Both the position numbers and the translations under genes were made by a program. From contig JBDRZU010000002.1 in assembly GCA_039804105.1 (NCBI GenBank), positions 128,001-192,000 on the forward strand: 64,000 nt of DNA. Reading direction: 5' to 3'. The notes under the pieces were generated by a model, which was given only the letters and a program-made list of their open reading frames with translations, searched no databases and had not been told where the DNA came from. Source of the stretch: a candidate division WOR-3 bacterium. Its GTDB lineage: Bacteria > Hydrothermota > 32-111. The first letter of the stretch is position 1, and each line of letters opens with the position of its first letter. Shown in pieces: positions 5,332 through 20,494 of this stretch.

Positions 5332-6470
5332 TATTTATAAACTTTCTCCACAATTTTTTTTGAAATTTTTTCCCATGTGAAATTTGAAGAAAAATTTCTC
5401 AAGTATTCCCTATCCCAGCTGTATTCAACTGCTTCAACAAGTTTTTTTAAAAACTCTTGTTTATCTCTTTTTTCAACGATAAAACCTGTTTTATAATCTT
5501 TAACAACTTCTTTTACACCACCAACATCAAATGAAATAACTGGAACACCAGAAGAGAATGATTCAAAAAGTATTGTCGGAAAACCCTCAGATTTACTTGT
5601 TATCAAGGTTAAAAATGCTTTTCTATATATATCTTTCATTCTAATTCTTTCAACAAAACCTTGAAAATCAACATAATCTTTTATTTTATATTCATCAATT
5701 CTCTTTAAAACCTGTTCCCTCAAAGGTCCATCTCCAACAATTTTGAGCTTAAAATCTTTTCTTATTTTTAAAAACTCGTTAAAAATATCTATCAATATCA
5801 AAGGATCTTTGACATAAGTCAACCGTCCAACAAAAAGAAGATTTTTTGACTGATCTGTTATTTCGAATATCTCTTTTATTCCATTTCTGATAACTATTGA
5901 GTTTTCGATTTTAAAATCATTTTTAAGAATCTTTCGCATCTTTTCACTAACAACTATAACTTTTTTTGACTTTTTAAGATAATAGTTTACTAAAATCTTA
6001 TCAAGAGGTCTTCTGTTTATAAACATAAGATCAGATCCATGTATTGTAACAACGAACGGGATTTTTTTTAACCTCGAAAGGATATACCCAGTAAATCCAT
6101 CTGGGAAAAGTGTATGAGAGTGAATAACATCGAATCGATCATTTTTTGTTTTTAAATGAAGAATAAAAGAAATTAAAAAGGAATCAAAATGTTTAGAAAA
6201 AACTTTTGGATATTTTAAAAGTTTAAAATCATTTTTCTGCTCTTTTATTTTGAATTTTTCTAATATTTTTTCCCTTTTTTTGGAAAAAAAAATCAAAAAA
6301 ATTTCTTTTATCGAAGGATTTATTCTAACTGGAACAAAAATTTTTACATCACACAGTTTTTTTAACTCTTCTACCTGTTCATAAACATATATTCCTGTTG
6401 AAGGCGTTAACCTTTGTGGTGACTCTGGCCAGAGGTGGGAGATCAAAAGGACTTTTTTATCCTTTTTCAT
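5331..6470 (-). CDS. Glycosyltransferase family 4
   Basis: DVIHSH, TIHGSD, FVGRL, EGFPTILFES (Ex7E), DVGGVKEVV. Confidence 0.9.
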   Translation of the reverse strand: MKKDKKVLLISHLWPESPQRLTPSTGIYVYEQVEELKKLCDVKIFVPVRINPSIKEIFLIFFSKKREKILEKFKIKEQKNDFKLLKYPKVFSKHFDSFLISFILHLKTKNDRFDVIHSHTLFPDGFTGYILSRLKKIPFVVTIHGSDLMFINRRPLDKILVNYYLKKSKKVIVVSEKMRKILKNDFKIENSIVIRNGIKEIFEITDQSKNLLFVGRLTYVKDPLILIDIFNEFLKIRKDFKLKIVGDGPLREQVLKRIDEYKIKDYVDFQGFVERIRMKDIYRKAFLTLITSKSEGFPTILFESFSSGVPVISFDVGGVKEVVKDYKTGFIVEKRDKQEFLKKLVEAVEYSWDREYLRNFSSNFTWEKISKKIVEKVYK

Positions 6471-7551
6471 ACTCTATAAGTTTTATTTTTAGATCTTTAT
6501 CTATCTTCTTTTGTTCAATATCCTTTTCATCTCTAACTATGAATTGCTGGTATCTATCTGTGGTTTTTATATGTACCAATTTTCTTTCACCATCAAAAAC
6601 ACCAAAAATGTTATGTTTCTCAGGTGAAGGGAATGGGCCATCAACTCCACCTGTTTCAAAATAGATTTCATTAACTTTTTTCTTATCTTTAAAAAAACCT
6701 TTTTCAATAAACTCTCTTTTCAATTTCCCATCAATATTTTCTGGAATTTTAATTCCAACGGAAACAAGAAGTAATGGAAGAAAATCTACACTTGAATGTA
6801 GATCGTTTATATCTTCCCTTTTTCCCTCTCCATATTTTATCACGAAATTATGTAGAGTGTAGTTATAAAGAAAAACTCCATAAGCCCTTTCTCCAAAAAC
6901 CTCACCTGTTGATGCACCATGATCTGAAAGAACCCAGATATCACTATTTTCATCCATTTTTTTTTCTTTTAATAGAGAAAGAATTTTTTTTAAGTACTCT
7001 CCAGAAATTCTTATATCATTTTTGTATCTTTCTCTGTTTTTTTCCATATTGTTAAAATACTCTTCAGATCTATCATTATAAACATTTAAAACATTGTTAA
7101 CAAGTGATGTATGTATTTTCGAATAGTGAAGATATAGAAAAAACGGCTTACCTGTTTTCATTTTTTCAGCGTTTTCTTGAACAAACTCTATATGTTTTTT
7201 TTCAACATCCTGATTGTATTCATCATGTAAAGTGTAAACATCAAACCCCCTGTTAGCCATAACAACAGGACTTGGAATATTTGCAAAAGTTGAATAACCA
7301 TTTTCTTTTAAATACTGTGGAATTATTTTAACATCCTTTTTTAAATCGTTAGGTCTGAAATATCCATTCACACCATTGTTTTTTGGATAAACTCCTGTAA
7401 AGATTGTATGCATTGAACCTATAGTATAAGGTGATGCTGTATAAAATCTATTATACCAAACAGATTTTGAAAACAGTTCCTGATATACAAGATCTTCTTT
7501 TACAAAATCGTATCTTGCTCCATCTATTATTATCAAAATTATGTTTTTCAT
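6457..7551 (-). CDS. Sulfatase-like / alkaline phosphatase superfamily hydrolase or transferase
   Basis: NIILIIIDGAR, ASPYTIGS (Thr at the nucleophile position, no CxPxR), PFFLYLHY, LSDHG. Confidence 0.75.
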   Translation of the reverse strand: MKNIILIIIDGARYDFVKEDLVYQELFSKSVWYNRFYTASPYTIGSMHTIFTGVYPKNNGVNGYFRPNDLKKDVKIIPQYLKENGYSTFANIPSPVVMANRGFDVYTLHDEYNQDVEKKHIEFVQENAEKMKTGKPFFLYLHYSKIHTSLVNNVLNVYNDRSEEYFNNMEKNRERYKNDIRISGEYLKKILSLLKEKKMDENSDIWVLSDHGASTGEVFGERAYGVFLYNYTLHNFVIKYGEGKREDINDLHSSVDFLPLLLVSVGIKIPENIDGKLKREFIEKGFFKDKKKVNEIYFETGGVDGPFPSPEKHNIFGVFDGERKLVHIKTTDRYQQFIVRDEKDIEQKKIDKDLKIKLIEYEKG

Positions 7552-8300
7552 TTTTTATTTCTTTTTTTCAAATTTTTATAAATAACTTCTCTTGCGTATG
7601 AAAGGTCCTCAAAAGTGTCAACCTCTGTCCATAAAAGTCCATCAGTGTAAACAGGTCTGAAAAAAACTCCATCTTTTGAGATATCAACAATAAGATCCTC
7701 ATAATATTTACCTTTCGCTAAAAAATCAAAAGTATCATAATGTTTCATCATTGCTTTTATTGAGTCAAATTTTACCATCGTTATACCTATATACTCACCA
7801 ACAGAGTCCTCTATCCTATTTTTTTTGGACAAAGATGAAACATATCCATCTTTTAAAAGAACCTTCATCTCCTCTTCTCCAAGTGTTTTCACATTATCAA
7901 CAACGATGCAATTTTCATCATGCATTAAAACTTTTTTTAAAATATCACTGTCAAAAATTATATCACTGTTAAAAATTATAAAATCTTTTTTTATATGTGG
8001 TAATGCTGTAAAAAGTGTATAACAGTTGTTATATTCTTTATATTTTTTATTTTCAACAAAGGTAAAATTTATATCTTTAAACTTTTTTTTCAAACTTAAA
8101 ACATACCTTTTTAAAACTGAAAACTGATGACCTCCAACGATCAAAATATCTTTTAATTCATTTTTGTAAATATTTTCTATGATAAGTCCTATAAAAGTTG
8201 TTCTTCCAACCCTTAACATTGTTTTTGGTTTTGTTTCTGTATCTGGTTTTAACCTTTCACCTGTTCCTGCAGCAAGAATAACTGCTTGAAAATTTTTCAT
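7548..8300 (-). CDS. LicC-like phosphocholine/phosphonate cytidylyltransferase family NTP transferase
   Basis: ILAAGTGERL, PKTML, NN.YTL, NSDIIF, EEMKV, GEYIGI, WTEVDTFEDL. Confidence 0.8.
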   Translation of the reverse strand: MKNFQAVILAAGTGERLKPDTETKPKTMLRVGRTTFIGLIIENIYKNELKDILIVGGHQFSVLKRYVLSLKKKFKDINFTFVENKKYKEYNNCYTLFTALPHIKKDFIIFNSDIIFDSDILKKVLMHDENCIVVDNVKTLGEEEMKVLLKDGYVSSLSKKNRIEDSVGEYIGITMVKFDSIKAMMKHYDTFDFLAKGKYYEDLIVDISKDGVFFRPVYTDGLLWTEVDTFEDLSYAREVIYKNLKKRNKK

Positions 8301-8302
8301 TT

Positions 8303-9802
8303 TTACTCCCTATCTTTCAGATAACCTAATCTTCTCAATTCTTCTTTCACAAATTCATCATCAACTTTTATTTCTTCTTTTTTTCTTTTCACAAGAAAAT
8401 CATAAGTATCTATGAAAGTTGGTTCAAAGAATTTATATAAAGTTTTACCATCAAAATCTTTCGCTATAGGTAGATTCAAAAAAGAAAGAAGTGTTGGAAG
8501 AAAATCGTATATCGTCGAGTTCCCAGCATTCCCTTTAAATTGCAGATCCTTGTCATAGATCATAAAAATTCCTGTTTTATCATGGTCAGCAGATCTTTCA
8601 ATATCGTTCAAATCAACAAGGGAAAGAAAATCAAAATAATCTGTTCCAATAAGAACCTTTAAATTTGATAAATCTTCTTCTTTGAATTTACTTTTATCAA
8701 GTTGTGTTATTTTCAAAAAAATTCTTCCACTTTCATCCTTTTCAACAACTTCAAAAAATTTTACTCCTGAGGGCTTAATGATGATGTTTTTAAAGAAACG
8801 GATAAGGTTCTCTGCATCCAATCCACTATTCTCTTTTACAACTATAACAGAATTTAACCCGACAAAATAGATTTCTACTTTTCCAAGAATATTTGTTTTT
8901 TCAAGAAAACTTTTCTGCTTTAGAGACAGTGTTTTAAAACTTCCCTCTCTTATAGGTTTCATTCCATGATCCGATATTATAAATAGAGATGAATCTTTGT
9001 TATTTTCATATATTTTTCTTAAACTGTTGTCTATCTCTATGTACGCTTTTAAAAGAAAATCTCCATATTTTTTTCTTTCTTCATCAGAAACTTCGGGGAA
9101 ATTTTCTTTGTCTGAATATTTCCAGAAATAGTGTGCTGCCGAATCTGACAAAGGAATGAAGAAAAATGATACATCGGTTTTAAATCTTTTCACAAGATTC
9201 AAAAAAAGTGACAGGTTTATTCTGTTCAAAAAAATCAACCTTTTAAAAAGCTTTTCTTTTTTATCATAAAACCTTTCAAAAAATATATTGAATGACAGTT
9301 GAGATAATGTTAAAAAGTCCACTCCAATTCTTTTCAACTTAAAGAATAAAAGAATATTTTTAAAAAGATTTCCCTTTTTCTTTCCTCTAAGTTCCATTAT
9401 CGGATAAAGATATGAAGGAAAAGTCCTATTATCCCTTGCCATAGAACAGGGAATCGTAAATCCACCATAATTTTCAGGTGGCCAAGTTAACTCCCACCCA
9501 AAAGTTCCAACAGAGTATCCATAATGGTTCAAAATTTCAAACCATCTTGCTGAAAATATATCCTGTTGAAGATTAAAAAATGATAAAATTTTATGTTTTT
9601 CAGCTTTTTTACCTGTTGCAAGTGACGTCCATATTGTTGGAGAGATTGGAACCCTTGTGTCCTGCTCAACAGAATCCATAAAAGAGTATATTGAATTTTC
9701 TTTTAAAAATTTAAAAAATGGTAATTTCCCTTCTTCAACAAACCTATCTATCAGAGTGAATGTCCCACCATCTATTCCAATTATAATAACTTTTTTCTTC
9801 AT
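8303..9802 (-). CDS. Alkaline phosphatase superfamily / type I phosphodiesterase-nucleotide pyrophosphatase
   Basis: IIGIDG, PISPTIWTSLATGK, ISDHG, DFLPTLL, C-terminal LRRLGY. Confidence 0.8.
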   Translation of the reverse strand: MKKKVIIIGIDGGTFTLIDRFVEEGKLPFFKFLKENSIYSFMDSVEQDTRVPISPTIWTSLATGKKAEKHKILSFFNLQQDIFSARWFEILNHYGYSVGTFGWELTWPPENYGGFTIPCSMARDNRTFPSYLYPIMELRGKKKGNLFKNILLFFKLKRIGVDFLTLSQLSFNIFFERFYDKKEKLFKRLIFLNRINLSLFLNLVKRFKTDVSFFFIPLSDSAAHYFWKYSDKENFPEVSDEERKKYGDFLLKAYIEIDNSLRKIYENNKDSSLFIISDHGMKPIREGSFKTLSLKQKSFLEKTNILGKVEIYFVGLNSVIVVKENSGLDAENLIRFFKNIIIKPSGVKFFEVVEKDESGRIFLKITQLDKSKFKEEDLSNLKVLIGTDYFDFLSLVDLNDIERSADHDKTGIFMIYDKDLQFKGNAGNSTIYDFLPTLLSFLNLPIAKDFDGKTLYKFFEPTFIDTYDFLVKRKKEEIKVDDEFVKEELRRLGYLKDRE

Positions 9803-9810
9803 AATTTTAA

Positions 9811-9838
9811 ATTATACTAACATAAAAATTTAATTCAA
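9811..9838 (-). promoter_or_regulatory. Putative promoter, leaderless (8 nt to ATG)
   Basis: TTGAAT-16-TATAAT, no SD. Confidence 0.55.
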
Positions 9839-9998
9839 GTTAAATTTAAAAATCTATTAACACATTAACTTAAAAAGAATTGGGTTCTATTCAAAATTCT
9901 TAAAGCTTCTAAATCTTTCTTATATTTGCTTATTTAGAATTTATAAAAAAAGTAATAAAAAAATTAAGAGCCTTACATTTTTAATATATAAATAATCC

Positions 9999-10027
9999 TT
10001 GACACAATTTGAATATTAAAATATTAT
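9999..10027 (+). promoter_or_regulatory. Putative promoter of the hsdS/hsdM-like pair
   Basis: TTGACA-17-TATTAT; implies the real start is ATG 10048, not TTG 10009. Confidence 0.6.
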
Positions 10028-10047
10028 TAAATAATAAAAAAAGAATT

Positions 10048-10668
10048 ATGATCTACAGGAAGTTAAAAGAGGTTGCAAAAGAAATATATGTTGGAATAAA
10101 TGTAAAAAATTATCTCGACAAAGCCGAAATTTCACAAAATGATTCAGAAAAAAAGATTATACTTCATATCCCCATAATAAATATCTCCAACCTGACAGAG
10201 GATGGATTCTTTGTAGGTGATTTTAAAAGATTAAAAATTTTTTCCCAAAGAGAGATATTAAAGTATACTGTAAAAGAAAAAGATGTGATTTTTAACTCCC
10301 GTGGTACAACTTTAAAAATTGCAATAGTAGATGAAGAAAGAGCAGGTTACCTTATAACATCAAATATGATCGCTGTCAGTTTAATAGATGAATTTATCAC
10401 TCCTGAAATTTTCGAATTTTATTTAAGAAGTGAAAAGGGTTTCTATGAATTGATGAAATTATCCTTTTCTTCAAAAAATTCTATCAGATTAACTAAGGAA
10501 AGTGTTGAAGAACTCAAAGTACCAATTTTAAAACCTCAGGAGTTAGCCAGTTTATCAGGGTTGTTGAATGATTATAAAATAATAAAAAACATAGCAAAAA
10601 ATATATCTACTGATCTTGATAAAATGGCATATTTTATTATGAAAATATTAAATAAAGATGAAAAATAA
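10048..10668 (+). CDS. Type I RM specificity subunit-like protein, single TRD (half-size HsdS)
   Basis: KLKEVA..IYVG, IPIINISNL, KDVIFNSRGT..KIAIV, PEIFEFYLRS, EELKVPI..QE pattern of the Methylase_S domain. Confidence 0.75.
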   Translation: MIYRKLKEVAKEIYVGINVKNYLDKAEISQNDSEKKIILHIPIINISNLTEDGFFVGDFKRLKIFSQREILKYTVKEKDVIFNSRGTTLKIAIVDEERAGYLITSNMIAVSLIDEFITPEIFEFYLRSEKGFYELMKLSFSSKNSIRLTKESVEELKVPILKPQELASLSGLLNDYKIIKNIAKNISTDLDKMAYFIMKILNKDEK

Positions 10669-12124
10669 AAATTTCGATACTCAAAAATTAAAAATAGAAT
10701 GTCTTAAAAAATATAAAAGAATCCTTAGAAAGGTTAGCAAATCAAGATTTTCACTTTTGTGGAATCTCAATTCAGATTTTTTAAAACTTTTGTTCATAAA
10801 ATATATTTACATGAATGAAGAAAATATCAAAAAATTTATCATTTTAGATGAGGGACTTTCATGGAAAAACCTTTCAGCGATAAAGGAAGATGTGGGAGTA
10901 TTTGTTGATAAAATTTTTGAAAATTTAGTTAAAAATAATGAAAATTTATCAGTTTTTTCCTTGCTTGAAAATTATTCTGAGCAGAAACATCGAAGAATTC
11001 CTATTGATAAAAAGTTTGCATTAAAATCAAGAGAAAAAATTCTAATTTATTTCATTGAAGAGTTAAACAAAGATTCATTTTTAAATCAAAAAAATACATT
11101 TAATATATTTGTTAAGGAGATAATTAACCATCAACAGCATTTTTACTATAAAATAAATGGATTAAAATATAGAGAAAATACTAATGAAGTAGTAAATTAT
11201 TTAAGTAGATATATAGAACAAAAGGTAAAAAATAGAGAAGATTTGTCTTTTTACATTCCCTATTTTAAAAGAGGTGAATTATATTTTGATATAATATTAA
11301 AAGTTGCTAACAAAAAAAGTAGTGTAAAAATTTATTGTAACGATTTTTGGGGTGAAATACCTGCTTTGATAATGCTAAAACTTTTTTTGAATGGTATTTA
11401 CAATGTTGATATCAGGACAAAAAAAGAACCATGGTTTATTGACTTTTTCAAAGATGAAAAGGAAGATTTAAAAAAATATGATATTGTTTTTGCTGATATT
11501 ATTGATGAAAAATATGATATAGATGAAGAACAATATCAAAAATTAAAAGAAAAAATTGAAACAGATTTAAGGTTTTACTTAGATTCAAAAAATATAATAT
11601 ATTCGTTTCTTCTTGACAGTTTAAATGAAAAAGGGGTTCTTATTTTGCTAACAAACTATAACTTTTTAACCGTTTCTGGTAGTAAAAAGGAAGTAAGAAA
11701 ATTTTTAGTTGAAAACAATTTTCTTGATGAGGTTATATCAATATATGGTTTTTTAAAATCACCTGTTGGGTATGATCCGGTTATAGTTCTTGTTGATAAA
11801 AACAGAGAAAAAAACAAAAAAGTGACTTTTGTTGACCTTGAAAGGGTAGTTGCTAAATTGTTACAGAAAAATAAAAATGAAGATAAAAATATTTTGAATG
11901 GAAATATTGATATATTAAAAGATATAGAATATGCAATGGTTCAAAAAAAGAATGAAGATATAAAAGAGAATGATTACAATTTTAATGTATTTAAATATCT
12001 TTCCTATCTACCTCAAGATTACAATGAAGCATTAGAAGAAATTGCCAAAAGGTTAAATGGAACTACAGAGGAATTTCAAAAGAGATTAAATGAATTTTTG
12101 ATCAAAATAAAAAAATTGAGATAA
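10658..12124 (+). CDS. HsdM (N6-adenine methylase)-like protein with degenerate motifs I and IV, predicted catalytically dead
   Basis: HsdM-like segments LLFIKYI, LKLFLNGI, LNEKG.LILL..NFL..SG..KEVRKFLVENNFLDEVISI, IKENDYNFN; motif I reads FYIPYFKRGEL (cf. IYDPACGSGGF) and motif IV reads YDIVFADIID (cf. FD.V.ANPPF). Confidence 0.75.
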   Translation: MKNKNFDTQKLKIECLKKYKRILRKVSKSRFSLLWNLNSDFLKLLFIKYIYMNEENIKKFIILDEGLSWKNLSAIKEDVGVFVDKIFENLVKNNENLSVFSLLENYSEQKHRRIPIDKKFALKSREKILIYFIEELNKDSFLNQKNTFNIFVKEIINHQQHFYYKINGLKYRENTNEVVNYLSRYIEQKVKNREDLSFYIPYFKRGELYFDIILKVANKKSSVKIYCNDFWGEIPALIMLKLFLNGIYNVDIRTKKEPWFIDFFKDEKEDLKKYDIVFADIIDEKYDIDEEQYQKLKEKIETDLRFYLDSKNIIYSFLLDSLNEKGVLILLTNYNFLTVSGSKKEVRKFLVENNFLDEVISIYGFLKSPVGYDPVIVLVDKNREKNKKVTFVDLERVVAKLLQKNKNEDKNILNGNIDILKDIEYAMVQKKNEDIKENDYNFNVFKYLSYLPQDYNEALEEIAKRLNGTTEEFQKRLNEFLIKIKKLR

Positions 12125-12282
12125 ATAAAGGTCCAGTTCATCCACCATATTTTAAAAAAGGTAAAAGATAAACAGTTGAGTGAATGTATTAATATTAATT
12201 TTTAAAGATTATTTTTTATTCCATAGATAGTTAGTTATTTTTTAAATATAAAAAATTCTTTTAGAATATTTTAATATTCATA

Positions 12283-12310
12283 TTGACTTATTTGTATTTT
12301 ATGATATAAT
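12283..12310 (+). promoter_or_regulatory. Putative promoter of the MoxR operon
   Basis: TTGACT-16-TATAAT with TGn extension; SD GGAGG at 12353. Confidence 0.7.
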
Positions 12311-12362
12311 ATTATTGTTTGAAAATTACACTGCATCAGTTATAAACAAAAGGGAGGTTATA

Positions 12363-13763
12363 GTGGAAATGGGAACACATATGACCGTCAAATTTTCGGG
12401 TTTTCTTGAAGAACTTGGAATTTTTGGTTATTCAAGCCTGGAACTACCAATAATAATAACTTTAGCAACTCAAGATCCAATACTTTTCGTAGGAACACAT
12501 GGAACCGCAAAAACGATCCTCTGTAAAAGAATTGCTGAAATGCTTTCCTTAAAATATCATTGCTATGATGCTTCAAAAGCTTTATTCGAAGATATTTTGG
12601 GATTTCCTAATCCAAATACTCTCAAAAAAGGAAAAATTGAGTATATTAGTACCCCGATTTCAATCTGGGATAAAGAATTTATACTTATTGATGAAATATC
12701 TAGAGCAAATTTTCAAACTCAAAGTAAATGGCTCGAGATTATAAGATCAAGGAAGATTATGGGATTGGAAATAAAAAACTTGAAATATATTTTTGCTGCA
12801 ATGAATCCTCAAAACTATATAGGTACATTCGAAATCGACAAAGCACTTTTAGGGAGATTCTCAATGATAATAGAAATACCCGATTTAAAAAATATGGATG
12901 ATAACACAATAAAAAATATTATAACGACAACACATTCGGATGATGCGAGAGGATTTTTGAAAAACAACCCCAAATTTAATAACTTCAATTTTAAAAAGAA
13001 AATAGAAAATACAATAAACAAAATAAAAAATGATTTTTATATCAAAAAATATGATGATATATCAATTAATTTTGTTCAAATCTTAATCAAATTGTTATTG
13101 GAAGAAAACATTGAAATAGATGGTAGACGAGCAGGAATGCTTTTTAGAAATATTCACAGTGCTCTATCTGCATATGATTATGATCGTAAAGATAAAAATG
13201 TTAAGAAAATTTTAAACCAAACAGCCTTAGATACAATATCTTCATTTGATAAAAATGAAAAAGAAAAAATAAAACTCTGTATTAAAAAAAGTTCAGATAT
13301 ATTAATTGATGGAAAAAATAAATATTATTTTTTCAATAAAAAAAATATCTCATCTACATTAAATGAATTTGCTTCAAATTACAACATCCTTCAAAATGAG
13401 GAAAAAGAAGAGTTCTTTTTAAAACTTCTTGAATATTATCAAGAATTGAAAAACGAAAAAGAGTTTGAAAAAATTCTTGAAATTTATGAATTTTCTTTTT
13501 TTCTTGAAAATCTCATGGAAAATGAAGCAACCAACAAAAATGAAAAAATAGTTGAACTTTTAAAAATGGTTCAAAAACCTTTTCTATTTCCGAATCAGAA
13601 AAATTTTATAAGAATTCTTACATTAATTAACCAAAAAGATAATAAGAGAATAAACTACTTCATCATTAATGTTTTAAGTAATTTTGAGTTCCAAAATGAT
13701 AACGATATTATAGAACATTATCATATTGCACAAAAATCTATGGAGGTAAATTATGTTTGTTAA
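12363..13763 (+). CDS. MoxR/RavA-family AAA+ ATPase with a long helical C-terminal extension
   Basis: Walker A GTHGTAKT, Walker B ILIDEISR, AAMNP, Arg finger ALLGRF, DGRR; start GTG 12363 or ATG 12369 after the SD. Confidence 0.85.
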   Translation: MEMGTHMTVKFSGFLEELGIFGYSSLELPIIITLATQDPILFVGTHGTAKTILCKRIAEMLSLKYHCYDASKALFEDILGFPNPNTLKKGKIEYISTPISIWDKEFILIDEISRANFQTQSKWLEIIRSRKIMGLEIKNLKYIFAAMNPQNYIGTFEIDKALLGRFSMIIEIPDLKNMDDNTIKNIITTTHSDDARGFLKNNPKFNNFNFKKKIENTINKIKNDFYIKKYDDISINFVQILIKLLLEENIEIDGRRAGMLFRNIHSALSAYDYDRKDKNVKKILNQTALDTISSFDKNEKEKIKLCIKKSSDILIDGKNKYYFFNKKNISSTLNEFASNYNILQNEEKEEFFLKLLEYYQELKNEKEFEKILEIYEFSFFLENLMENEATNKNEKIVELLKMVQKPFLFPNQKNFIRILTLINQKDNKRINYFIINVLSNFEFQNDNDIIEHYHIAQKSMEVNYVC

Positions 13764-14787
13764 TGCATTTAAACTTTTATATGATTTTAAAGAAAATAAA
13801 ACAAGATTTTTTGAGAAAATAAAAGTTCAATATCCTTTTGTTGAATGTTTCAACAACCTTGAAATGTTTCTTTTTGAAGAAAAAAACAAAATCTTTAAAC
13901 CTTTTATATTGAATCTAACAGATGGTTCAACAAAACACGGGATTTTATCATATTCTTCCATATCTGGTTTAAAAAATTTTTTAAAATCAAAAAATAGCAT
14001 TCACTTCATAGAAAACAAACCTGTAATTTTAAATCAGATTGAAAATGAATCACATTACATGAAAAAATCTTATTTCTTCACAAGAAACAAATTCAAATTA
14101 GAAAAATATGGAATTTTACATAATAAATTTTTTACTAACTACAAAGATGATATCTTTTTTTTAAAAAAAGAATTAATAGATTCTTATAATTATTATAACG
14201 ATTCAGATTATGGTGAATCATTTTCATATAGTTTATTTGAAAAAGATTACAAAGACCAGAAATTAAGATTGTTCAGGACTCTGTTTTTAATTCTTGAACA
14301 AAAAAATGAAAAACCAAAAAAAACTTTCTGTTATAACTTTAAAGATTACTTTTCTGTTTATAATGCTACCGAACTTCCTGAGGAAATACAGGAAGAATTT
14401 GACAATTATGGCTTTTTTGGAAAACCAAACTTTATTGATAATTATTTTAACATGATAAATATTAAAATTAAATATATCGTCAGAATCCCTGAAAAAGAAG
14501 AAATAAACAGATTCCATGAGAATAAAAAAATAATAAAACCTAAACTTGAAAAAAAATTTTATTTTGTATTTTTTGATCCATTTCCACAATATGTTGAAGA
14601 TAAACTCGATGACATAATACCAATAACAGACATTGAACATGCATATTCGATTCTTATACATTCAGGTTCAGGATATTATTTTAACTCAGAGAAAGATCCT
14701 TCTTCTGAACATATTTATGAAAAATTAAGAAAAAATAGCAAATATATATGTCTGGGAGAAGCTATACAATTTCCAAAAAAGATTTAA
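13753..14787 (+). CDS. Hypothetical protein (MoxR operon)
   Basis: 344-aa ORF, SD GGAGG, overlaps the ATPase stop; no confidently recognised motif. Confidence 0.65.
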   Translation: MFVNAFKLLYDFKENKTRFFEKIKVQYPFVECFNNLEMFLFEEKNKIFKPFILNLTDGSTKHGILSYSSISGLKNFLKSKNSIHFIENKPVILNQIENESHYMKKSYFFTRNKFKLEKYGILHNKFFTNYKDDIFFLKKELIDSYNYYNDSDYGESFSYSLFEKDYKDQKLRLFRTLFLILEQKNEKPKKTFCYNFKDYFSVYNATELPEEIQEEFDNYGFFGKPNFIDNYFNMINIKIKYIVRIPEKEEINRFHENKKIIKPKLEKKFYFVFFDPFPQYVEDKLDDIIPITDIEHAYSILIHSGSGYYFNSEKDPSSEHIYEKLRKNSKYICLGEAIQFPKKI

Positions 14788-14796
14788 AGAGGTTTT

Positions 14797-16083
14797 ATGT
14801 CGAATAAAGATATCAAAAAAATATTCTCTGATATTTTAAATGAAAACTTTGAGCAATTTTCTGGTAAAATTACCTTCTTGTTTTCAGATGAAATTTCAAC
14901 AGCATGTGTAAAAAGAAATGAAAATGGTTTTTTGTTATTATTTAATAAGAATTTTATTGAAAAATATGATTTAAGTTTATTTGATATCGAATTTGTATTA
15001 TACCATGAACTTTCACACTTAAAATATGGTGATCTCAATAAAATTTTTTCTACAAATATTACAGAAAAAGAAAAAATTACCATAAATATTGTTCTTGATA
15101 TAATGATAAATTCATTATTAATAAAAAATTTTCATTTTACAAAATATCTTACAATTTTTGAAAAATTATATAACTTATCAAGTTTCCCTACATTTCTACT
15201 TTATCCACCATCTCTATACGATTTTCAAAAAGAAAGAGAAAATTTAAAAAAAGTTTTATTAAAAAATGGTATAGATGAATTTGATTGTGAATTAATTTTT
15301 GATCTATATATAAAAATGTGGGATTTAAAAATTTCAGAAACTGAAGCATTTTACAGTTTAAAAGAATTTATTGAATTTTTTGAGGATCATAATCCGATCT
15401 TTTTGGGTTCCCATGAAAAAAAAGGTTATTCAAACAAACCTATAAATGAAATCATAAATTTTAGATTACAAAAATCAGGTCAAAAAGACAACATTAAAAA
15501 CTTTTATGAATTTTTAAAATTTATAAACACCATGTTATCAGAAGGTCAGAATTTTGCCTCAAAAACAATTGAACAAAATATTTTTTACAATGTAATAGAT
15601 TTTATCACAAGAAAAGATATACTTTTCAATTTCTACAATGTTGAAAGATTACTCTATGAAAATAAAATATACAAAGAAGATTTTACAAAAAAGGATCTTT
15701 CAGTTTATATTGATGTTTCTGGTTCATTTTTAAAAACTTATCCATACATCGTTAAACTGGTTTCACAACTAAAAGGTTTTTATTTTTTAGAACTTTTTCA
15801 GTTCAGTTCAACAATTAAAAAAATTAAATTTAATGACTTTTTAAAAGGCATTGTTACAACAAATAATATGACCAATATCGATGCTGTTTTGAAACATATA
15901 ATCGATAACAACTATAAAAATGCACTTATTATAAGTGATGGTTTAATACATCATCCTTCTAATGATCTTATTTTTAAAATAAAAGAAAAAAATATTCAAA
16001 TATTTTCTATCATTACAAGAAAACAGTCAGAAAATAAAGTTAAACAATTTTCTTATAAATACCTTTTTCTTAAAATAAACTAA
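14797..16083 (+). CDS. DUF2201-type metallopeptidase (HExxH) plus vWA domain protein
   Basis: STAC, HELSHL, NIVLDIMIN; MIDAS YIDVSGS ... T ... IISDG. Confidence 0.8.
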   Translation: MSNKDIKKIFSDILNENFEQFSGKITFLFSDEISTACVKRNENGFLLLFNKNFIEKYDLSLFDIEFVLYHELSHLKYGDLNKIFSTNITEKEKITINIVLDIMINSLLIKNFHFTKYLTIFEKLYNLSSFPTFLLYPPSLYDFQKERENLKKVLLKNGIDEFDCELIFDLYIKMWDLKISETEAFYSLKEFIEFFEDHNPIFLGSHEKKGYSNKPINEIINFRLQKSGQKDNIKNFYEFLKFINTMLSEGQNFASKTIEQNIFYNVIDFITRKDILFNFYNVERLLYENKIYKEDFTKKDLSVYIDVSGSFLKTYPYIVKLVSQLKGFYFLELFQFSSTIKKIKFNDFLKGIVTTNNMTNIDAVLKHIIDNNYKNALIISDGLIHHPSNDLIFKIKEKNIQIFSIITRKQSENKVKQFSYKYLFLKIN

Positions 16084-16094
16084 AAGGAGGAAAA

Positions 16095-16544
16095 ATGAAA
16101 AAAAGTGTATCAAAATTGTCCGATGATAAAAATTTTTCAATTATAATCGACTTAAAAAATATTTTCAAAGAACAAAAAATAAAAATTAAGAAAGAAAAAA
16201 TAAACCATGGAGGAAATATAAAATTTGGATTGAATTCCTGTCAATATACTTTTTACAGTGATACATTTGAAGAAAAAATTTTAAGAGCGATCGAAGGAAT
16301 TTTAATACATGAACCAGTTGATGATAAAATTAAATTTTTGCAGGGAATACCTAAGAAACTTGAAATAAAAGTGGAATATAGCAATTTTCATGACTCATCT
16401 GAGATAAGAATCGAAAAAATTTCACATTTTGCTTTGGTTACACTTGCATATTACCTTTTAAGGGTAATAAAAGTTTTTGAATGTGAGGTTAAAAGTGACA
16501 TGGACCAAGGATACGGCCTTGTTGCTATAGATGAAGCAATTTAA
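16095..16544 (+). CDS. Hypothetical protein
   Basis: 149-aa ORF with strong SD AAGGAGG. Confidence 0.65.
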   Translation: MKKSVSKLSDDKNFSIIIDLKNIFKEQKIKIKKEKINHGGNIKFGLNSCQYTFYSDTFEEKILRAIEGILIHEPVDDKIKFLQGIPKKLEIKVEYSNFHDSSEIRIEKISHFALVTLAYYLLRVIKVFECEVKSDMDQGYGLVAIDEAI

Positions 16545-16556
16545 AAATAAAAAAAA

Positions 16557-16630
16557 CGGGAGCGACGAGACTCGAACTCGCGACCTCTTGCGTGACAGGC
16601 AAGCGTTCTAACCAACTGAACTACGCCCCC
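16557..16630 (-). tRNA. tRNA-Asp(GUC), CCA not encoded
   Basis: Reverse complement GGGGGCGTAGTTCAGTTGGTTAGAACGCTTGCCTGTCACGCAAGAGGTCGCGAGTTCGAGTCTCGTCGCTCCCG forms a cloverleaf; anticodon GTC, discriminator G. Confidence 0.97.
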
Positions 16631-16644
16631 GTTTAAGGGATGTT

Positions 16645-16673
16645 ATAATACCATAGAAATAAAATTTTGTCAA
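16645..16673 (-). promoter_or_regulatory. Putative tRNA promoter
   Basis: TTGACA-17-TATTAT. Confidence 0.7.
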
Positions 16674-16676
16674 TAT

Positions 16677-18931
<2,255 letters not shown>

Positions 18932-18939
18932 AAGATTAA

Positions 18940-18967
18940 ATTATATCACAAATTCAGAGATTATCAA
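18940..18967 (-). promoter_or_regulatory. Putative promoter, leaderless (8 nt to ATG)
   Basis: TTGATA-16-TATAAT with TGn. Confidence 0.6.
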
Positions 18968-18971
18968 CTAT

Positions 18972-19613
18972 TTAAACACCGATTTTTTCACAGTGTTTAT
19001 TTAATACACAAATATCACATTTTGGTCTTACAGGTCTGCACACATTCTGTCCCCATATAACAAGCAATTCGTTGTAAATTATCCAGTATTTTTCAGGCAA
19101 AACTTTCATCAGTTCGATTTCCGTTTCATAAGGATTTTTTGTTTTTATTACTCCAAATCTGTTTGAAATTCTATGAACATGAGTATCAACACATATACTT
19201 TTTTTCCCATAACCTAAAGATAGCACAAGGTTTGCTGTTTTCCTTCCAACACCTTTCAAATTCAAAAGTTGTTCCATATCATCTGGCACTTTTCCACCAT
19301 ATTTATCGATTATTGTTTGAGAAACATTTTTGATCACTTTCGCTTTATTTCTATAGAACCCTGCTTTTTTTATCAGGTTTTCTATCTCACTGTTTTCAAG
19401 TTTCACCATTTTATAAGGTGTATCTGCTACTTTGAAAAGTTTTAAAGATACCTCTTCTGTTATCTTATCTTTGGTTCTCAAAGAGATCAAAGTTGATATC
19501 AGAATTTTATAGGGAGTGCTTTTTTCAAAAAGTTTACCTACAACAGGTTTTTTATACTTTTTTGTTTCCTTTAAAAGAATTTTTAGAATCTTTATAAAAA
19601 CTTTTTTATCCAT
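18972..19613 (-). CDS. nth: Endonuclease III
   Basis: HhH LKGVGRKTAN, VDTHVHRI, 4Fe-4S motif CRPVRPKCDICVLNKHC. Confidence 0.95.
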   Translation of the reverse strand: MDKKVFIKILKILLKETKKYKKPVVGKLFEKSTPYKILISTLISLRTKDKITEEVSLKLFKVADTPYKMVKLENSEIENLIKKAGFYRNKAKVIKNVSQTIIDKYGGKVPDDMEQLLNLKGVGRKTANLVLSLGYGKKSICVDTHVHRISNRFGVIKTKNPYETEIELMKVLPEKYWIIYNELLVIWGQNVCRPVRPKCDICVLNKHCEKIGV

Positions 19614-20494
19614 CAAAACAACAATAAAGTTAAAGCAACATAAACCGATTCAAGAAAATATAAAATTCGATAAAATCTTCTAAAATTTCTCGGGAAATTA
19701 AAATCGATATTTGACTTTAAAATTTTTATAAAGTGATAGAGTTGTAAAAACATTCCAGGTAAAAATGCGATTCCAGTGTAAATTGGGATCACTTTAAAAA
19801 ACGAAATCGTTAAAAAATATAAACAGGATGTAAAAAATATTATAGAGGAAAGTATGAACGATCCTTTAAGACCCAACTTGTGTGCGATTGTGATGACATT
19901 GTTTTCCTTATCCGTTTGATAATCAACATTGTAATGGTTGATATGCCCCGCTATTTCTATAAGTCCAAAAAACAAGGAAAAGAAGATAAGATCAAAAGAA
20001 AAGTAACCTACAATATAGGAACCAAATATTGCAAGAAAAGGCATTGTTAGAAGATCAAGGATAAAAGGGAAAACAATTCCCTTTTTAAACATAACGAGTG
20101 GATGCGTATAGAGAATCCAGCCAAGCATAAGAAAAATGAAATAGATTGTGAAATATGGATTTATAAAGAGAGAAAAGAAGATGTTTGATAAAAAGAAGAA
20201 CGATGAAATATAAAAAAGAAACTTTTTATCAACTCCTTTAAACCTTTCTTCAAATTTCTTTTTTTTGTCTTTCAAATCAAGTTCAAATGTTGCATAGTTG
20301 TTATATGAAAGAACCTGCGATAAAAATGAGAATACAGCGAGAATTCCAAAAAGTGTTTTGAAACTTAACTCAGGAAATCCCAACCTATATGTTGCATAGA
20401 TGAAACCTGCGACAGTTATAAAAAAATGCTGAATGTTTTCGTAAGGTCTTATAGCAAAAAATAAAGACCTTATATGATTTTTAAGAGTTTTCAT
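19613..20494 (-). CDS. UbiA-family prenyltransferase
   Basis: Multi-TM, IRP N-terminus, YT.P..FK, second acidic motif DYQTD....TIA; first acidic motif degenerate. Confidence 0.7.
   Translation of the reverse strand: MKTLKNHIRSLFFAIRPYENIQHFFITVAGFIYATYRLGFPELSFKTLFGILAVFSFLSQVLSYNNYATFELDLKDKKKKFEERFKGVDKKFLFYISSFFFLSNIFFSLFINPYFTIYFIFLMLGWILYTHPLVMFKKGIVFPFILDLLTMPFLAIFGSYIVGYFSFDLIFFSLFFGLIEIAGHINHYNVDYQTDKENNVITIAHKLGLKGSFILSSIIFFTSCLYFLTISFFKVIPIYTGIAFLPGMFLQLYHFIKILKSNIDFNFPRNFRRFYRILYFLESVYVALTLLLF

Follow-up and report, generated by a model that had tools for sequence, protein, structure and literature searches.

Does a short run of genes that unites a methylation-incompetent HsdS/HsdM pair with a MoxR-type ATPase and a vWA-linked peptidase represent a single conflict system, or two sets of genes that happen to be neighbours? 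The question is raised by a block in a 64,000-nucleotide window (the whole stretch of DNA analysed here) of an uncultured hot-spring bacterium of the candidate division WOR-3, known from a metagenome-assembled genome of 1.81 Mb that is 85% complete. The initial annotation, made from the letters of the DNA, described a defence islet in which the two sets of genes act together; its observation is confirmed, and its interpretation is partly supported, as detailed below.

Gene content and setting of the block

The block consists of six open reading frames on the + strand (10009-10668, 10658-12124, 12315-13763, 13753-14787, 14797-16083 and 16095-16544), flanked by a phosphodiesterase gene (8303-9802), part of a phosphodiesterase operon, and gyrB (16677-18635), both on the - strand. 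In agreement with the initial description, the six genes are co-oriented, opposite to their neighbours and AT-rich: the GC content in 1-kb windows is 0.22-0.28 within 10001-16000, compared to 0.27-0.29 in the left flank and 0.31-0.34 in the right flank. The main features of the locus are as follows.

9839-16555, no strand: accessory block of about 6.7 kb, left edge approximate (empty-site alignment and low GC)
10048-10668, +: ORF1, half-size HsdS carrying a single target-recognition domain (PADLOC Specificity_I, best E 1.3e-13)
10658-12124, +: ORF2, HsdM-like protein, predicted 'dead' Type I methyltransferase (PF02384, E 3.8e-10)
12369-13763, +: ORF3, long MoxR-type AAA+ ATPase (AAA_3, 1.6e-11; AAA_5, 2.1e-8; bpMoxR, 2.1e-5)
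13753-14787, +: ORF4, 'Mid', 344 aa, conserved third component of the MoxR-Mid-zincin/vWA triad (hhalign, protein census)
14797-16083, +: ORF5, selecase-like zincin fused to a vWA domain (HExxH, MIDAS, AF2 model)
16095-16544, +: ORF6, orphan protein, 149 aa (no family match in Pfam, NCBIfam or PADLOC)
16556-16631, -: tRNA-Asp (GTC), right boundary of the block

In the alignments with the empty site of G003 and the G004 site, conservation runs to approximately position 9838 and picks up again at the tRNA. Because the tRNA-Asp gene is on the - strand, its 3' end lies 11 nt past the stop of ORF6; the proximity was noted correctly at the outset, with the distance given as 12 bp. The further suggestion that the tRNA 3' end served as the insertion site is not borne out: both an integrase and a tRNA-derived repeat were looked for at the block and neither was found, so that classical tRNA-site integration is not demonstrated.

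The Pfam search of the block detected no HsdR, nuclease or integrase, as claimed originally, and no kinase, PglZ or helicase. The searches revealed no HTH protein in the block, its intergenic gaps hold no ORF of at least 50 aa, and the PADLOC models, as anticipated, matched no system in it. A complete Type I system for restriction and modification (RM), with HsdR, is present elsewhere in the same genome, in a canonical HsdM-Fic-HsdS-HsdR operon. All six genes of the block evolve under purifying selection, with dN/dS ratios of 0.06 to 0.23.

The HsdS/HsdM pair

ORF1 matched 21 PADLOC Specificity_I models, each across half of the model; its frame is open from a TTG at 10009, and the probable start, judged from the relatives, which are 206-208 aa long, is the ATG at 10048. 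When ORF2 was aligned with the functional HsdM of the same genome, the SAM-binding motif I was found to be degenerate (IPYFKRGE vs DPCCGSGG) and the catalytic motif IV to be missing (ADIID vs NPPF). The protein aligns with PDB 7vru_B and 3lkd_A along the full length of the HsdM-like fold, including the C-terminal region, and shows no HsdM_N Pfam match. Across this family, motif IV reads DIID, NVID, NIID, AIFF, LPIL or MPER, compared to NPPF in the resident HsdM, and the methylase is accordingly predicted from its motifs to be dead in every member; in G009, the gene additionally contains an internal stop. The dN/dS ratio of ORF2 is nevertheless 0.11-0.12, indicative of purifying selection. Thus, the description of the pair as a dead methylase with a half HsdS holds.

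The MoxR-Mid-zincin/vWA triad

The initial assignment of a MoxR ATPase and a vWA-peptidase is likewise supported. ORF3 encodes 464 aa from the likely ATG at 12369 (a start also judged from relatives; the frame is open from 12315) and carries a C-terminal extension of about 180 aa; the Walker A G/G/K and Walker B D/E residues are invariant in 16 relatives, and the bpMoxR model, which has a cut-off of 27 bits, yields 24 bits for ORF3 and reaches at most 37 bits among relatives. In ORF5, the zincin HExxH motif occupies residues 70-74 and the vWA MIDAS consists of D306-S308-S310, T359 and D381; HExxH and the MIDAS motif DVSGS...T...D are invariant or at least 90% conserved among 26 relatives, and the HExxH, MIDAS and Walker motifs are kept across phyla. 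In the AF2 model of ORF5, one domain has the vWA fold (Z up to 12.7) and the N-terminal domain resembles selecase (4qhf_A, Z 10.4, rmsd 3.2 and 102 aligned residues). The vWA domain also matches the MIDAS domain of Rea1 (6qt8, E 8.4e-5) and, from the NorQD complex, NorD (9qhe_G, E 1.4e-3). The protein scores below the Pfam DUF2201 thresholds; DUF2201_N matched weakly in five of the seven relatives tested, and one further relative reached 23.5 bits against the cut-off of 23.2.

Mid had been proposed as an effector; rather than being a lineage-specific effector, it forms the third conserved part of the core of the triad. It has no match in Pfam, NCBIfam or PADLOC, is related to its Endomicrobiia and Myxococcales counterparts with an hhalign probability of 95.7%, and belongs to a family with 96 representatives among 1.84 billion proteins. 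Neither the PDB nor BFVD contains a match to its AF2 model (pLDDT 79.8), and comparison of Mid with VMAP, STAND, FtsH and propeller models gave no match. ORF6 is confined to the genus, where it is 77-93% identical in G001 and G002; its Atlas score is 0.83, under the usable level.

Distribution, exchange and linkage

The block is an accessory, horizontally exchanged element, as the initial annotation had supposed in calling it an islet. Relatives of ORF5 are present in three of the five genomes of the genus, and the other two, G003 and G004, contain empty sites; in G003, about 150 bp separate the phosphodiesterase gene from tRNA-Asp. Between G001 and G002, dS is 0.21-0.59 for the islet genes compared to 0.017-0.023 for the flanking gyrB and phosphodiesterase genes. 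Matches to the zincin-vWA protein were found in 18 of the 271 genomes of the phylum.

MoxR-Mid-zincin/vWA is a rare three-gene unit that occurs in several phyla, mostly found without HsdS/HsdM and often near defence genes. The neighbours of such triads include Macro with a ClpX-like ATPase, PD-(D/E)XK with PIF1/WYL, a PIN toxin-antitoxin pair with a Type ISP enzyme, NERD-STAND, CHAT-TPR, a HEPN/NTase pair, WYL regulators and a McrB-like ATPase; some triad loci adjoin housekeeping genes (glutamate synthase in L054, dnaX in L017). Among the triad loci, 12 in which 3 kb or more of sequence lies upstream of MoxR were examined, and none has HsdS/HsdM; therefore, the triad does not require the pair.

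The linkage of the two units in other genomes, which the initial annotation had put forward as a check, was detected in seven genomes of three genera, all within one clade of one WOR-3 family, with protein identity between the genera of 25-43%. G000 (the source genome), G001, G002, G008, G011 and G009 share the order HsdS, dead HsdM, MoxR, Mid, which in G012 spans a contig break; the zincin-vWA gene comes next wherever the contig extends (in G009 it is cut off, and G011 has a partial gene). No full-length match to the dead HsdM was found in the rest of the 271 genomes. The six linked MoxR proteins form one clade with support of 100/100, and the co-occurrence represents a single evolutionary event; being statistically one event, the linkage could reflect hitch-hiking. 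In genus g5, two extra genes lie between the HsdS/HsdM unit and the MoxR unit, and there is a second dead HsdS/HsdM pair that is linked to TPR and FGE-sulfatase genes rather than to the triad. ORF6 is absent in the other genera that keep the linkage.

Promoters and a shared bipartite palindrome

The block has only two intergenic gaps, and both contain promoter-like sites and copies of a palindrome:

9999-10027, +: P1, TTGACA-17-TATTAT, 5' of the HsdS unit (11/12 positions)
12283-12310, +: P2, TTGACT-16-TATAAT, with an extended -10 TG (11/12 positions)
10011-10026, no strand: palindrome copy 1, GAATATTAAAATATTA, lying between the P1 -35 and -10; differs from GAATA-N6-TATTC by one mismatch
12264-12279, no strand: palindrome copy 2, GAATATTTTAATATTC, ending 3 nt ahead of the P2 -35
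15990-16005, no strand: palindrome copy 3, weaker, within the 3' end of ORF5, about 90 bp 5' of ORF6

P1, which is conserved in G001 and G002, and P2 are two of the five best sigma-70-like matches, consistent with the two promoter-led units originally described; such matches are frequent in this AT-rich DNA (64 observed vs 51 expected). The exact 15-mer GAATATTNNAATATT occurs at four sites in the 1.81-Mb genome, two of them in the promoter gaps of the block. In G001, where copy 3 is exact for the 15-mer, three of the four sites fall within the block; in G008, whose genome measures 2.0 Mb, the sole site is 2 nt ahead of the -35 of the MoxR-unit promoter; and G011 carries GAATATTCAATTATTC at the equivalent position. 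What is new here is that GAATA-N6-TATTC abuts the MoxR-unit -35 in two genera that share 25-39% protein identity: the palindrome, which the initial annotation had not noted, is found at both promoter regions in g1 and at the MoxR-unit promoter in g5. It is absent in G009, which has the linkage, and in the eight triad loci without HsdS/HsdM that were searched, save for one site in L017. Genome-wide, the short motif is not enriched in G000 (six sites, the same as for the reversed control); given that it was defined on the block before this count, the independent counts are those of G008, G011 and G001, the last being a close relative.

A symmetric 5+6+5 site is the expected target of a half-HsdS dimer in Type I systems, and HsdS/HsdM is the only component with predicted sequence-specific DNA binding that is common to both motif-carrying genera. 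It is possible that the palindrome is bound by a host regulator instead.

A possible mechanism and the alternatives

Taken as a whole, the block looks like a new type of anti-virus alarm, as a candidate, and we tentatively favour, at a little short of an even chance, a composite conflict system, probably anti-phage, in which an ATPase-peptidase module is gated by the dead HsdS/HsdM pair, acting as a sensor, repressor or decoy that binds DNA. One part would be the triad, capable of standing alone and comprising a presumably active MoxR-type AAA+ ATPase, the fast-evolving Mid, and a small zincin peptidase with a vWA/MIDAS adaptor. The other part, restricted to the single WOR-3 clade, would be a half-HsdS and an HsdM incapable of SAM binding or methylation that should still form an M2S2-like complex reading a symmetric bipartite DNA site. 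This complex would occupy GAATA-N6-TATTC and, given the position of the palindrome next to or over both promoters, might hold the ATPase-peptidase unit either silent or poised. The complex would then be removed from DNA by a phage product directed against Type I enzymes; the candidate trigger is an Ocr/ArdA-type DNA-mimic anti-restriction protein aimed at the resident canonical Type I system, which offers such a target, or, alternatively, the complex could be disturbed in some other way. Production or release of MoxR, Mid and the zincin-vWA protein would follow, the ATPase would remodel the vWA protein, and the peptidase could cleave host or phage proteins, halting infection.

Among the alternatives, it is conceivable, although we consider it rather improbable, that a stand-alone dead HsdS/HsdM pair, either a passive sponge for anti-restriction proteins, shielding the host's own Type I system, or a relic that evolves slowly, and a separate triad landed side by side once and have been co-inherited since. 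Defence genes cluster in islands without joint action, and the single origin of the linkage, the 12 triad loci without the pair, the separate promoter-like sites, and the intervening genes and second pair in g5 all fit such an account. It is harder to reconcile with the retention of the linkage in three genera at identities down to 25%, with the failure to find a member of the dead-HsdM clade apart from the triad in the 271 genomes, with the palindrome common to the g1 and g5 promoters, and with a dead pair that has no effector of its own. The best-known role of MoxR-vWA pairs is that of maturation chaperones (NorQD, CbbQO, RavA-ViaA), and the ATPase and zincin-vWA protein might similarly mature or process a client, namely Mid or the HsdS/HsdM-like complex, or resemble the jumbo-phage MoxR and N-terminal-metallopeptidase-vWA proteins, described in part of PMC7824862 as a chaperone pair and proposed to act in virion assembly. 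The NorD and Rea1 matches and the housekeeping neighbours of some triads are compatible with this non-defence role; we find it unlikely in view of the patchy distribution, the insertion/deletion polymorphism within one genus, the exchange of islet alleles between otherwise near-identical genomes, the frequent defence-type neighbours, and the lack of an obvious metabolic client gene conserved beside the triad.

The initial annotation had inferred sensing of phage DNA or anti-restriction proteins followed by effector activation. In the specific form where the inactive complex reads unmodified phage DNA and signals to the ATPase/peptidase, with ORF4 or ORF6 as the effector, this draws on the linkage of the units and on HsdS/HsdM as a DNA-recognition module, yet we regard it as doubtful. 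A dead methylase is unable to mark self DNA; the site, if it is GAATA-N6-TATTC, is not avoided in the host genome, where its count equals that of the reversed control; ORF4 is a core part of the triad rather than a variable effector; and ORF6 is dispensed with where the linkage persists in other genera. Finally, a diverged form of a named methylation-based multi-gene defence system, namely MADS or one related to BREX or resembling MANTIS, is highly improbable and close to refuted. The weak PADLOC matches of ORF3 to mad8 (E 4.3e-4) and of the G008 HsdS to mad5 (E 2.4e-7), and the MANTIS precedent of an AAA+ ATPase that loads a methyltransferase on DNA, as given in the portion of that account consulted, speak for it. 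They are outweighed by the missing motifs I and IV, the absence of a kinase, PglZ, nuclease and helicase from the block, the single mad model of eight touched by proteins of the window, and the assignment, in the same portion, of the MANTIS ATPase to the ORC/Cdc6 clade rather than to MoxR.

Comparison with known systems

The closest precedents are Ronin and the MoxR-vWA ternary systems; two other comparisons come first. Methyltransferases of Type I RM systems in their M2S1 or half-HsdS variants share the full-length HsdM-like fold and a one-TRD HsdS, but the block lacks motifs I and IV, an HsdM_N Pfam match and an HsdR in the locus. The pair in group 2.2 jumbo phages (Pfam DUF2201_N/DUF2201 architecture; Iyer et al. 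2021, PMC7824862, the part consulted) is built in the same way from two proteins, a MoxR ATPase and a vWA protein with a fused HExxH peptidase, but the pair in the block is chromosomal, with the Mid gene in between, and ORF5 falls short of the DUF2201 thresholds; there were no plasmid matches and two weak viral ones.

The MoxR-vWA-centric ternary conflict systems, of VMAP, iSTAND, FtsH and beta-propeller types, and their peptidase effectors were predicted by Kaur et al. 2020 (PMC7159879) and restated in PMC12839542. As far as the consulted portions of these accounts go, they resemble the triad in the single operon that combines a MoxR AAA+ ATPase and a vWA/MIDAS protein with a third, fast-evolving component, in the joining of peptidase domains to the vWA protein and in the patchy distribution. 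They differ in that Mid matches none of the VMAP, STAND, FtsH or propeller models and its fold has no PDB match, the peptidase of the block, a zincin, is N-terminal in the vWA protein rather than a C-terminal effector, and the hosts are unicellular with small genomes; the portions consulted do not mention a link to HsdS/HsdM.

Ronin of E. coli ECOR55 (Silas et al., bioRxiv 10.1101/2023.04.06.535777) comprises, according to the part of the preprint consulted, HsdMS without HsdR that functions as an Ocr/ArdA decoy independently of methylation, that is, a sensor or decoy rather than a restriction enzyme; the block likewise encodes hsdS and hsdM without hsdR. In the same part, the Ronin HsdM retains NPPF, which was mutated experimentally, whereas the methylase of the block appears to be naturally dead, and 77% of the Ronin-encoding E. 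coli genomes have no Type I system, whereas the host of the block has a full one. The Ronin effector is RonA, a 61-aa membrane peptide, whereas the linked partner in the block is the MoxR/Mid/zincin-vWA triad.

A six-gene accessory islet

The six co-oriented genes of the block are on the plus strand and are flanked on both sides by minus-strand gene groups:

6457-9802, minus strand, phosphodiesterase/nucleotidyltransferase/sulfatase operon
16556-19616, minus strand, tRNA-Asp/gyrB/dciA/nth group

The source is a candidate-division WOR-3 metagenome-assembled genome (G000; 1.81 Mb in 2 contigs, 85% complete), and the DNA runs containing this stretch are hot-spring metagenomes. The GC content is 0.22-0.28 within the block vs about 0.27-0.34 on the flanks. 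ORF1 (half-size HsdS) and ORF2 (HsdM-like) overlap by 11 nt, as do ORF3 (MoxR) and ORF4 (denoted Mid hereafter), with spacings of 9 nt between ORF4 and ORF5 (zincin-vWA) and 11 nt between ORF5 and ORF6 (an orphan). The only gaps precede ORF1 and separate ORF2 from ORF3, and each contains a promoter-like match that ranks among the top five of the region (P1 and P2, respectively). Judging from the sequences of relatives, ORF1 probably starts at the ATG at 10048, and ORF3 probably starts at the ATG at 12369, which is preceded by AAGGGAGG.

The same six genes occupy the same site in two other genomes of the genus (G001 and G002), with 75-92% identity, and in G003, the block is absent, with the phosphodiesterase start located about 150 bp from tRNA-Asp. 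In G004, the otherwise empty site contains unrelated DNA of about 940 bp with a higher GC content (L051:7215-8136) that encompasses only ORFs of 43-91 aa and for which the Rfam search yielded a tRNA match only. Thus, the islet noticed in the initial annotation is real: given the relatives with the block, the empty site and the unrelated DNA, these six genes comprise an accessory islet. Insertion at the tRNA 3' end, to which the initial annotation alluded, is not supported: Pfam searches of the six genes detected no integrase domain, and among the repeats reported for 9700-16700, there is none derived from the tRNA, so that neither of the features expected of an integrative island at a tRNA site was found, namely, an integrase and, at the far boundary, a direct repeat copying the 3' end of the tRNA. 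Rfam searches over 9000-17500 detected nothing besides the tRNA.

All six genes evolve under purifying selection, with dN/dS ratios of 0.06 to 0.23 (0.11 to 0.12 for the dead methylase). Between G001 and G002, dS is 0.017-0.023 for the flanking gyrB and phosphodiesterase genes vs 0.21-0.59 for the islet genes, and ORF6 of G000 is closer to the G002 copy than the G001 copy is. This contrast, together with the grouping of ORF6, indicates that alleles of the block move between genomes via recombination at a fixed site; the mosaic islet alleles (10048-16544 compared with L008 and L009) further imply recombination inside the block.

A half-size HsdS and a catalytically dead HsdM

ORF1 is a half-size HsdS with a single target recognition domain (TRD): 21 PADLOC Specificity_I models match it, each over about half its length, and its homologs in G008 and G009 each have one Pfam Methylase_S match. 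ORF2 is HsdM-like along its entire length, with both catalytic signatures gone. At motifs I and IV, the Type I methylase encoded elsewhere in the same genome has VFDPCCGSGGMF and FVIANPPFNDSD, and ORF2 has FYIPYFKRGELYF and IVFADIIDEKYD; the aligned positions read IPYFKRGE and ADIID in ORF2, DPCCGSGG and NPPF in the genome's own HsdM, and YDPTCGTGGM and ANPPY in 7vru_B. ORF2 accordingly contains neither the SAM motif I (DPxxGxGG) nor the motif IV (NPPF/Y/W) of a Type I restriction-modification HsdM, and both motifs are absent from all seven members of the dead-HsdM clade that were compared. No HsdR domain was found in the six genes; the sole hsdR match of the genome (G000:C1) belongs to a separate, complete, canonical operon of the composition HsdM-Fic-HsdS-(196 aa)-HsdR.

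This operon (G000:C1:1174000-1187000; L078:1567-9309, minus strand) encodes an HsdM of 514 aa with an intact NPPF, a Fic/DOC protein of 382 aa, a two-TRD HsdS of 385 aa, an uncharacterized protein of 196 aa and an HsdR of 1091 aa. The embedded Fic gene may represent an abortive-infection or toxin module.

Among the 271 genomes of the phylum, full-length matches to the dead-HsdM profile are confined to a single family (f1), namely, G000, G001 and G002 (genus g1) and G008, G011 and G012 (genus g5), each of the latter three with a second, upstream paralog. In G009 (genus g3), the match is weaker and the gene is interrupted by an internal stop; the 41 other genomes with matches contain ordinary HsdMs scoring at most 55 bits. 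The second half-HsdS and dead-HsdM pair of g5 (L011:177-4799 in G008, L047:10903-15025 in G011) is co-oriented with genes for a TPR protein (423-437 aa) and an FGE-sulfatase-domain protein (about 305 aa), joined in G008 by a 'Bact_hydrolase' protein. Dead pairs of this kind may be reusable sensor modules that serve more than one partner.

The MoxR, Mid and zincin-vWA triad

ORF3 is a MoxR-type AAA+ ATPase (AAA_3 and AAA_5 above the cut-offs) with a C-terminal extra region of about 180 aa and intact Walker motifs, G42, G45, K48, D108 and E109 being invariant among 16 sequences. The N-terminal HExxH domain of ORF5 superposes, as an AF2 model, on selecase of M. jannaschii (Z 10.4, rmsd 3.2 Å over 102 of 109 residues, 26% identity), and the modeled C-terminal domain resembles vWA domains (Z up to 12.7), with matches that include Rea1-MIDAS and NorD of NorQD. 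The HExxH motif and the full MIDAS are conserved in 26 relatives across several phyla, and all five MIDAS residues (D306, S308, S310, T359 and D381) are invariant in the 26 sequences. The models thus support the assignment of ORF5 as a selecase-like zincin fused to a vWA domain. The plasmid collection contained no match to ORF5, and the viral contigs yielded two weak matches, both confined to the vWA part.

ORF4 (Mid) and ORF6 have no match in Pfam, NCBIfam or PADLOC (for Mid, not even in Pfam at E up to 5), and their matches in the ESM Atlas are all below threshold (0.83 for ORF6 and 0.75 for Mid). An exhaustive HMMER search of 1.84 billion proteins detected Mid in 96 representative clusters at E <= 0.001, with lengths of about 330-400 aa except for fragments, and Mid of the WOR-3 clade is homologous to that of Endomicrobiia and Myxococcales over the full length (hhalign 95.7%, E 9.8e-9). 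Searches with an AF2 model of Mid built from a 67-sequence alignment (pLDDT 79.8, pTM 0.75) yielded nothing at E <= 0.001 from the PDB (Foldseek) or from BFVD; in a wide VIA comparison of the whole chain with the PDB, where the rows sampled only residues 154-230 well, the best Z was 3.8. The Mid family, as compared over the whole chain, appears to have a fold absent from the PDB.

The order MoxR, Mid, zincin-vWA is retained in WOR-3 families outside f1 (G055, G056, G059 and G232), and the triad is also present in an Endomicrobiia MAG and at two loci of a Myxococcales MAG; MoxR and zincin-vWA matches were also identified in G149 and in Planctomycetota and Uhrbacteria MAGs. The zincin-vWA gene was found on 24 metagenome contigs, most of which, as far as the contig extends, carry MoxR and/or Mid as well, with the gene order retained. 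Within the phylum, 18 of the 271 genomes have a zincin-vWA match (12 of the 180 that are at least 90% complete). Defense-type genes are often located near the triads that lack HsdS/HsdM, and some triads adjoin housekeeping genes instead.

Defense-type genes in the neighborhoods of the triad

Macro and ClpX-like ATPase, adjoining Cas6
PD-(D/E)XK and PIF1-WYL
DUF2281-PIN pair and Type ISP enzyme
NERD-STAND, GIY-YIG
CHAT-TPR, SbcCD-like genes
HEPN/nucleotidyltransferase pair
WYL regulators; McrB-like ATPase

We are inclined to regard the triad as a defense or conflict system.

Several individual neighborhoods deserve mention. In the Uhrbacteria MAG (L020:4003-7691), genes for a 595-aa protein resembling the major vault protein (with MVP shoulder and Vault repeats), a phosphorylase (PNP_UDP_1) and an uncharacterized protein of 344 aa are directly upstream of the triad MoxR. 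On a metagenome contig (L066:11228-17951), the triad is immediately followed by a WYL-WCX-HTH regulator, with a second, classical pair of a MoxR-like ATPase (AAA_5) and VWA_CoxE 4 kb beyond. A pair of SbcD-like (Metallophos) and SbcC-like (AAA_23) genes is found downstream of the triad at two unrelated loci (L017:12026-15747 and L060:8460-11788) and may be a recurrent partner.

Linkage of the dead HsdS/HsdM pair to the triad

The dead pair is located directly upstream of the triad in all seven genomes that carry it; a contig break interrupts the linked genes in G012, and two genes intervene between the dead HsdM and MoxR in g5. This g5 insert, which heads the MoxR unit (L011:7208-8401 in G008, L047:2682-3560 in G011), consists of a 104-aa gene and a gene for a WapI-like immunity-family protein of 292 aa (PF24716, E 3.5e-20). 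The HsdM-MoxR spacer of G009 (L048:3061-3911, about 850 bp) contains two TTCCTGC-N4-GCAGGAA hairpins, possibly a small repeat element.

In the MoxR tree (22 sequences), six linked MoxRs form one clade with 100/100 support, which requires one change; hence the association of the pair with the triad arose once. The linkage is maintained down to 25% identity in HsdM, 19% in Mid, 28% in zincin-vWA and 38-39% in MoxR and HsdS. No HsdS/HsdM genes accompany 12 triads whose loci extend at least 3 kb upstream of MoxR (L017, L019, L020, L021, L043, L045, L046, L055, L062, L066, L069 and L077). The initial annotation, which had joined the two units into one system, is therefore borne out in that the pair accompanies the triad in seven genomes of three genera, but this reflects a single origin, and the triad occurs without the pair at those 12 loci. 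On balance, functional coupling of HsdS/HsdM to the triad appears somewhat favored.

A palindrome shared by both promoters

An inverted-repeat search pairs the two promoter gaps, and the core of the repeat is a palindrome, GAATATTnnAATATT(C), with the following copies:

10011-10025, copy 1, between the -35 and -10 elements of P1
12264-12278, copy 2, ending 3 nt before the -35 element of P2

The palindrome was defined on this locus before counting. Its exact form occurs only at these two sites in the 64-kb window and at 4 sites in the whole genome vs 1 for the reversed control. G001 and G002 retain both copies unchanged amid variable surrounding DNA, and in G001, three of the four genomic sites are within the block, the third being in the 3'-terminal part of ORF5, before ORF6 begins. 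In G008, the sole copy in 2.0 Mb, GCGAATATTCAAATATTCGC, is separated by 2 nt from the downstream TTGACA of the promoter-like site at the head of the MoxR unit, and G011 has GCGAATATTCAATTATTCGC in the equivalent position. When the motif is written as GAATA-N6-TATTC, the g5 loci contain two more copies, one located 47 bp inside the unit's first gene and the other close to the 3' end of zincin-vWA. In this form, G008 has 19 genomic sites vs 5 for the control, 4 of the 19 falling within or next to the locus on a single contig, and G000 contains as many sites of the short form as of the control (6 vs 6). Among eight triad loci lacking HsdS/HsdM, the only site is a single one in L017, and G009 has none.

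HsdS, HsdM, MoxR, Mid and zincin-vWA are common to the two motif-bearing genera, and the domain searches of the block yielded no HTH protein. Of these five, the only predicted sequence-specific DNA binder is HsdS/HsdM. In Type I enzymes, a symmetric 5+6+5 site is the kind expected for a half-HsdS dimer.

Possible mechanism

The dead HsdS/HsdM pair could be a DNA-bound sensor or repressor, or else a bait for DNA-mimicking anti-restriction proteins; the canonical Type I operon of the same genome would be the target of such phage proteins. The recognition of foreign DNA envisaged in the initial annotation is unlikely because a methylase that is unable to methylate cannot mark self, and a role as sensor, repressor or bait fits better than discrimination of unmodified foreign DNA. 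The more general idea of a sensing M/S complex that acts through an ATPase/peptidase effector remains plausible and gains new support from the palindrome at both promoters, but the linkage represents one event, and every mechanistic step in the model is one that we infer. The specific operator/decoy mechanism is, in our estimate, a tentative and rather doubtful proposal. In its complete form, which we consider unlikely, a Type I complex devoid of catalysis would have become an operator-binding repressor that doubles as an anti-restriction decoy, and a DNA mimic would strip it from GAATA-N6-TATTC, unlocking an undescribed AAA+/zincin-vWA immune effector with a third subunit of a new fold. If the repressor/decoy reading is correct, restriction-enzyme parts would here provide a form of transcriptional guard immunity. 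Under rival readings too, the palindrome conserved at the promoters and the exchange of alleles at a fixed chromosomal site are useful markers of defense-locus turnover in uncultured thermophiles.

Comparison with known systems

As the initial annotation anticipated, PADLOC yielded no full match, only Type I parts and a weak match to mad8. Of the eight-gene MADS system (mad1-mad8), which includes an active methylase and a kinase among its components, only mad8 is matched, by ORF3 (E 4.3e-4), with no other mad model matched by the proteins of the window; going by the available parts of the published descriptions, membership in MADS, BREX and MANTIS is ruled out because the methylase is dead and partner genes are missing. 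The McrBC/CoCoNuT literature, in the parts available, contains no MoxR/vWA/zincin branch, and mentions of DUF2201, PF09967 and PF13203, as judged from titles and abstract openings, look incidental. In the literature searched, we found no description of Mid, the triad, the triad combined with dead HsdS/HsdM, or the palindrome; the supplementary tables of two Aravind-type surveys (Kaur 2020, NAR 2026) might list such triads.

Pfam models the metallopeptidase-vWA partners of MoxR as DUF2201_N/DUF2201, whereas the present zincin-vWA family is at or below the thresholds: ORF5 itself matches neither PF13203 nor PF09967 at E up to 5, and its relatives match DUF2201_N at E 0.0017-0.096, under the cut-off, with the relative at L044 scoring 23.5 bits against a cut-off of 23.2. 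A pair of MoxR and metallopeptidase-vWA in jumbo phages has been proposed, in the accessible text, to be an assembly chaperone (PMC7824862). The MoxR-vWA ternary conflict systems, which the portions available to us present as computational predictions, are predicted to contain vWA-fused peptidases that become active only when a fast-evolving third component has sensed an invader (PMC7159879, PMC12839542). The third components named there are VMAP, iSTAND, FtsH and beta-propeller proteins, whereas Mid lacks a Pfam match (E up to 5) and a PDB match, its structure being well sampled by the VIA rows at 154-230 only, which leaves some room for a divergent P-loop domain. Given that there is no PDB or BFVD match, Mid, as modeled and compared over the whole chain, is not detectably an inactive STAND NTPase or a VMAP of the published ternary systems.

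According to the available text of the Ronin preprint, HsdMS without HsdR serves as bait, independently of methylation, and the system requires an upstream non-coding region whose role is unknown (bioRxiv 10.1101/2023.04.06.535777). The block resembles Ronin, as described there, in encoding hsdS and hsdM without hsdR, and the dead motifs imply that its pair would likewise be independent of methylation. Ronin, in the same text, is linked to a small membrane toxin (RonA, 61 aa); the intergenic gaps of the block contain no ORF of at least 50 aa. We regard the locus as a variation on known kinds, namely, MoxR-vWA conflict systems and a Ronin-like use of HsdMS. Should the coupling prove real, the locus would be a compact and tractable MoxR-vWA example, with the Walker B, HExxH and MIDAS motifs and the operator as mutational handles, and the second case after Ronin, mechanistically different from it, of restriction parts used as bait for phage counter-defense, as well as the first naturally dead bait, possibly acting as a transcription factor.
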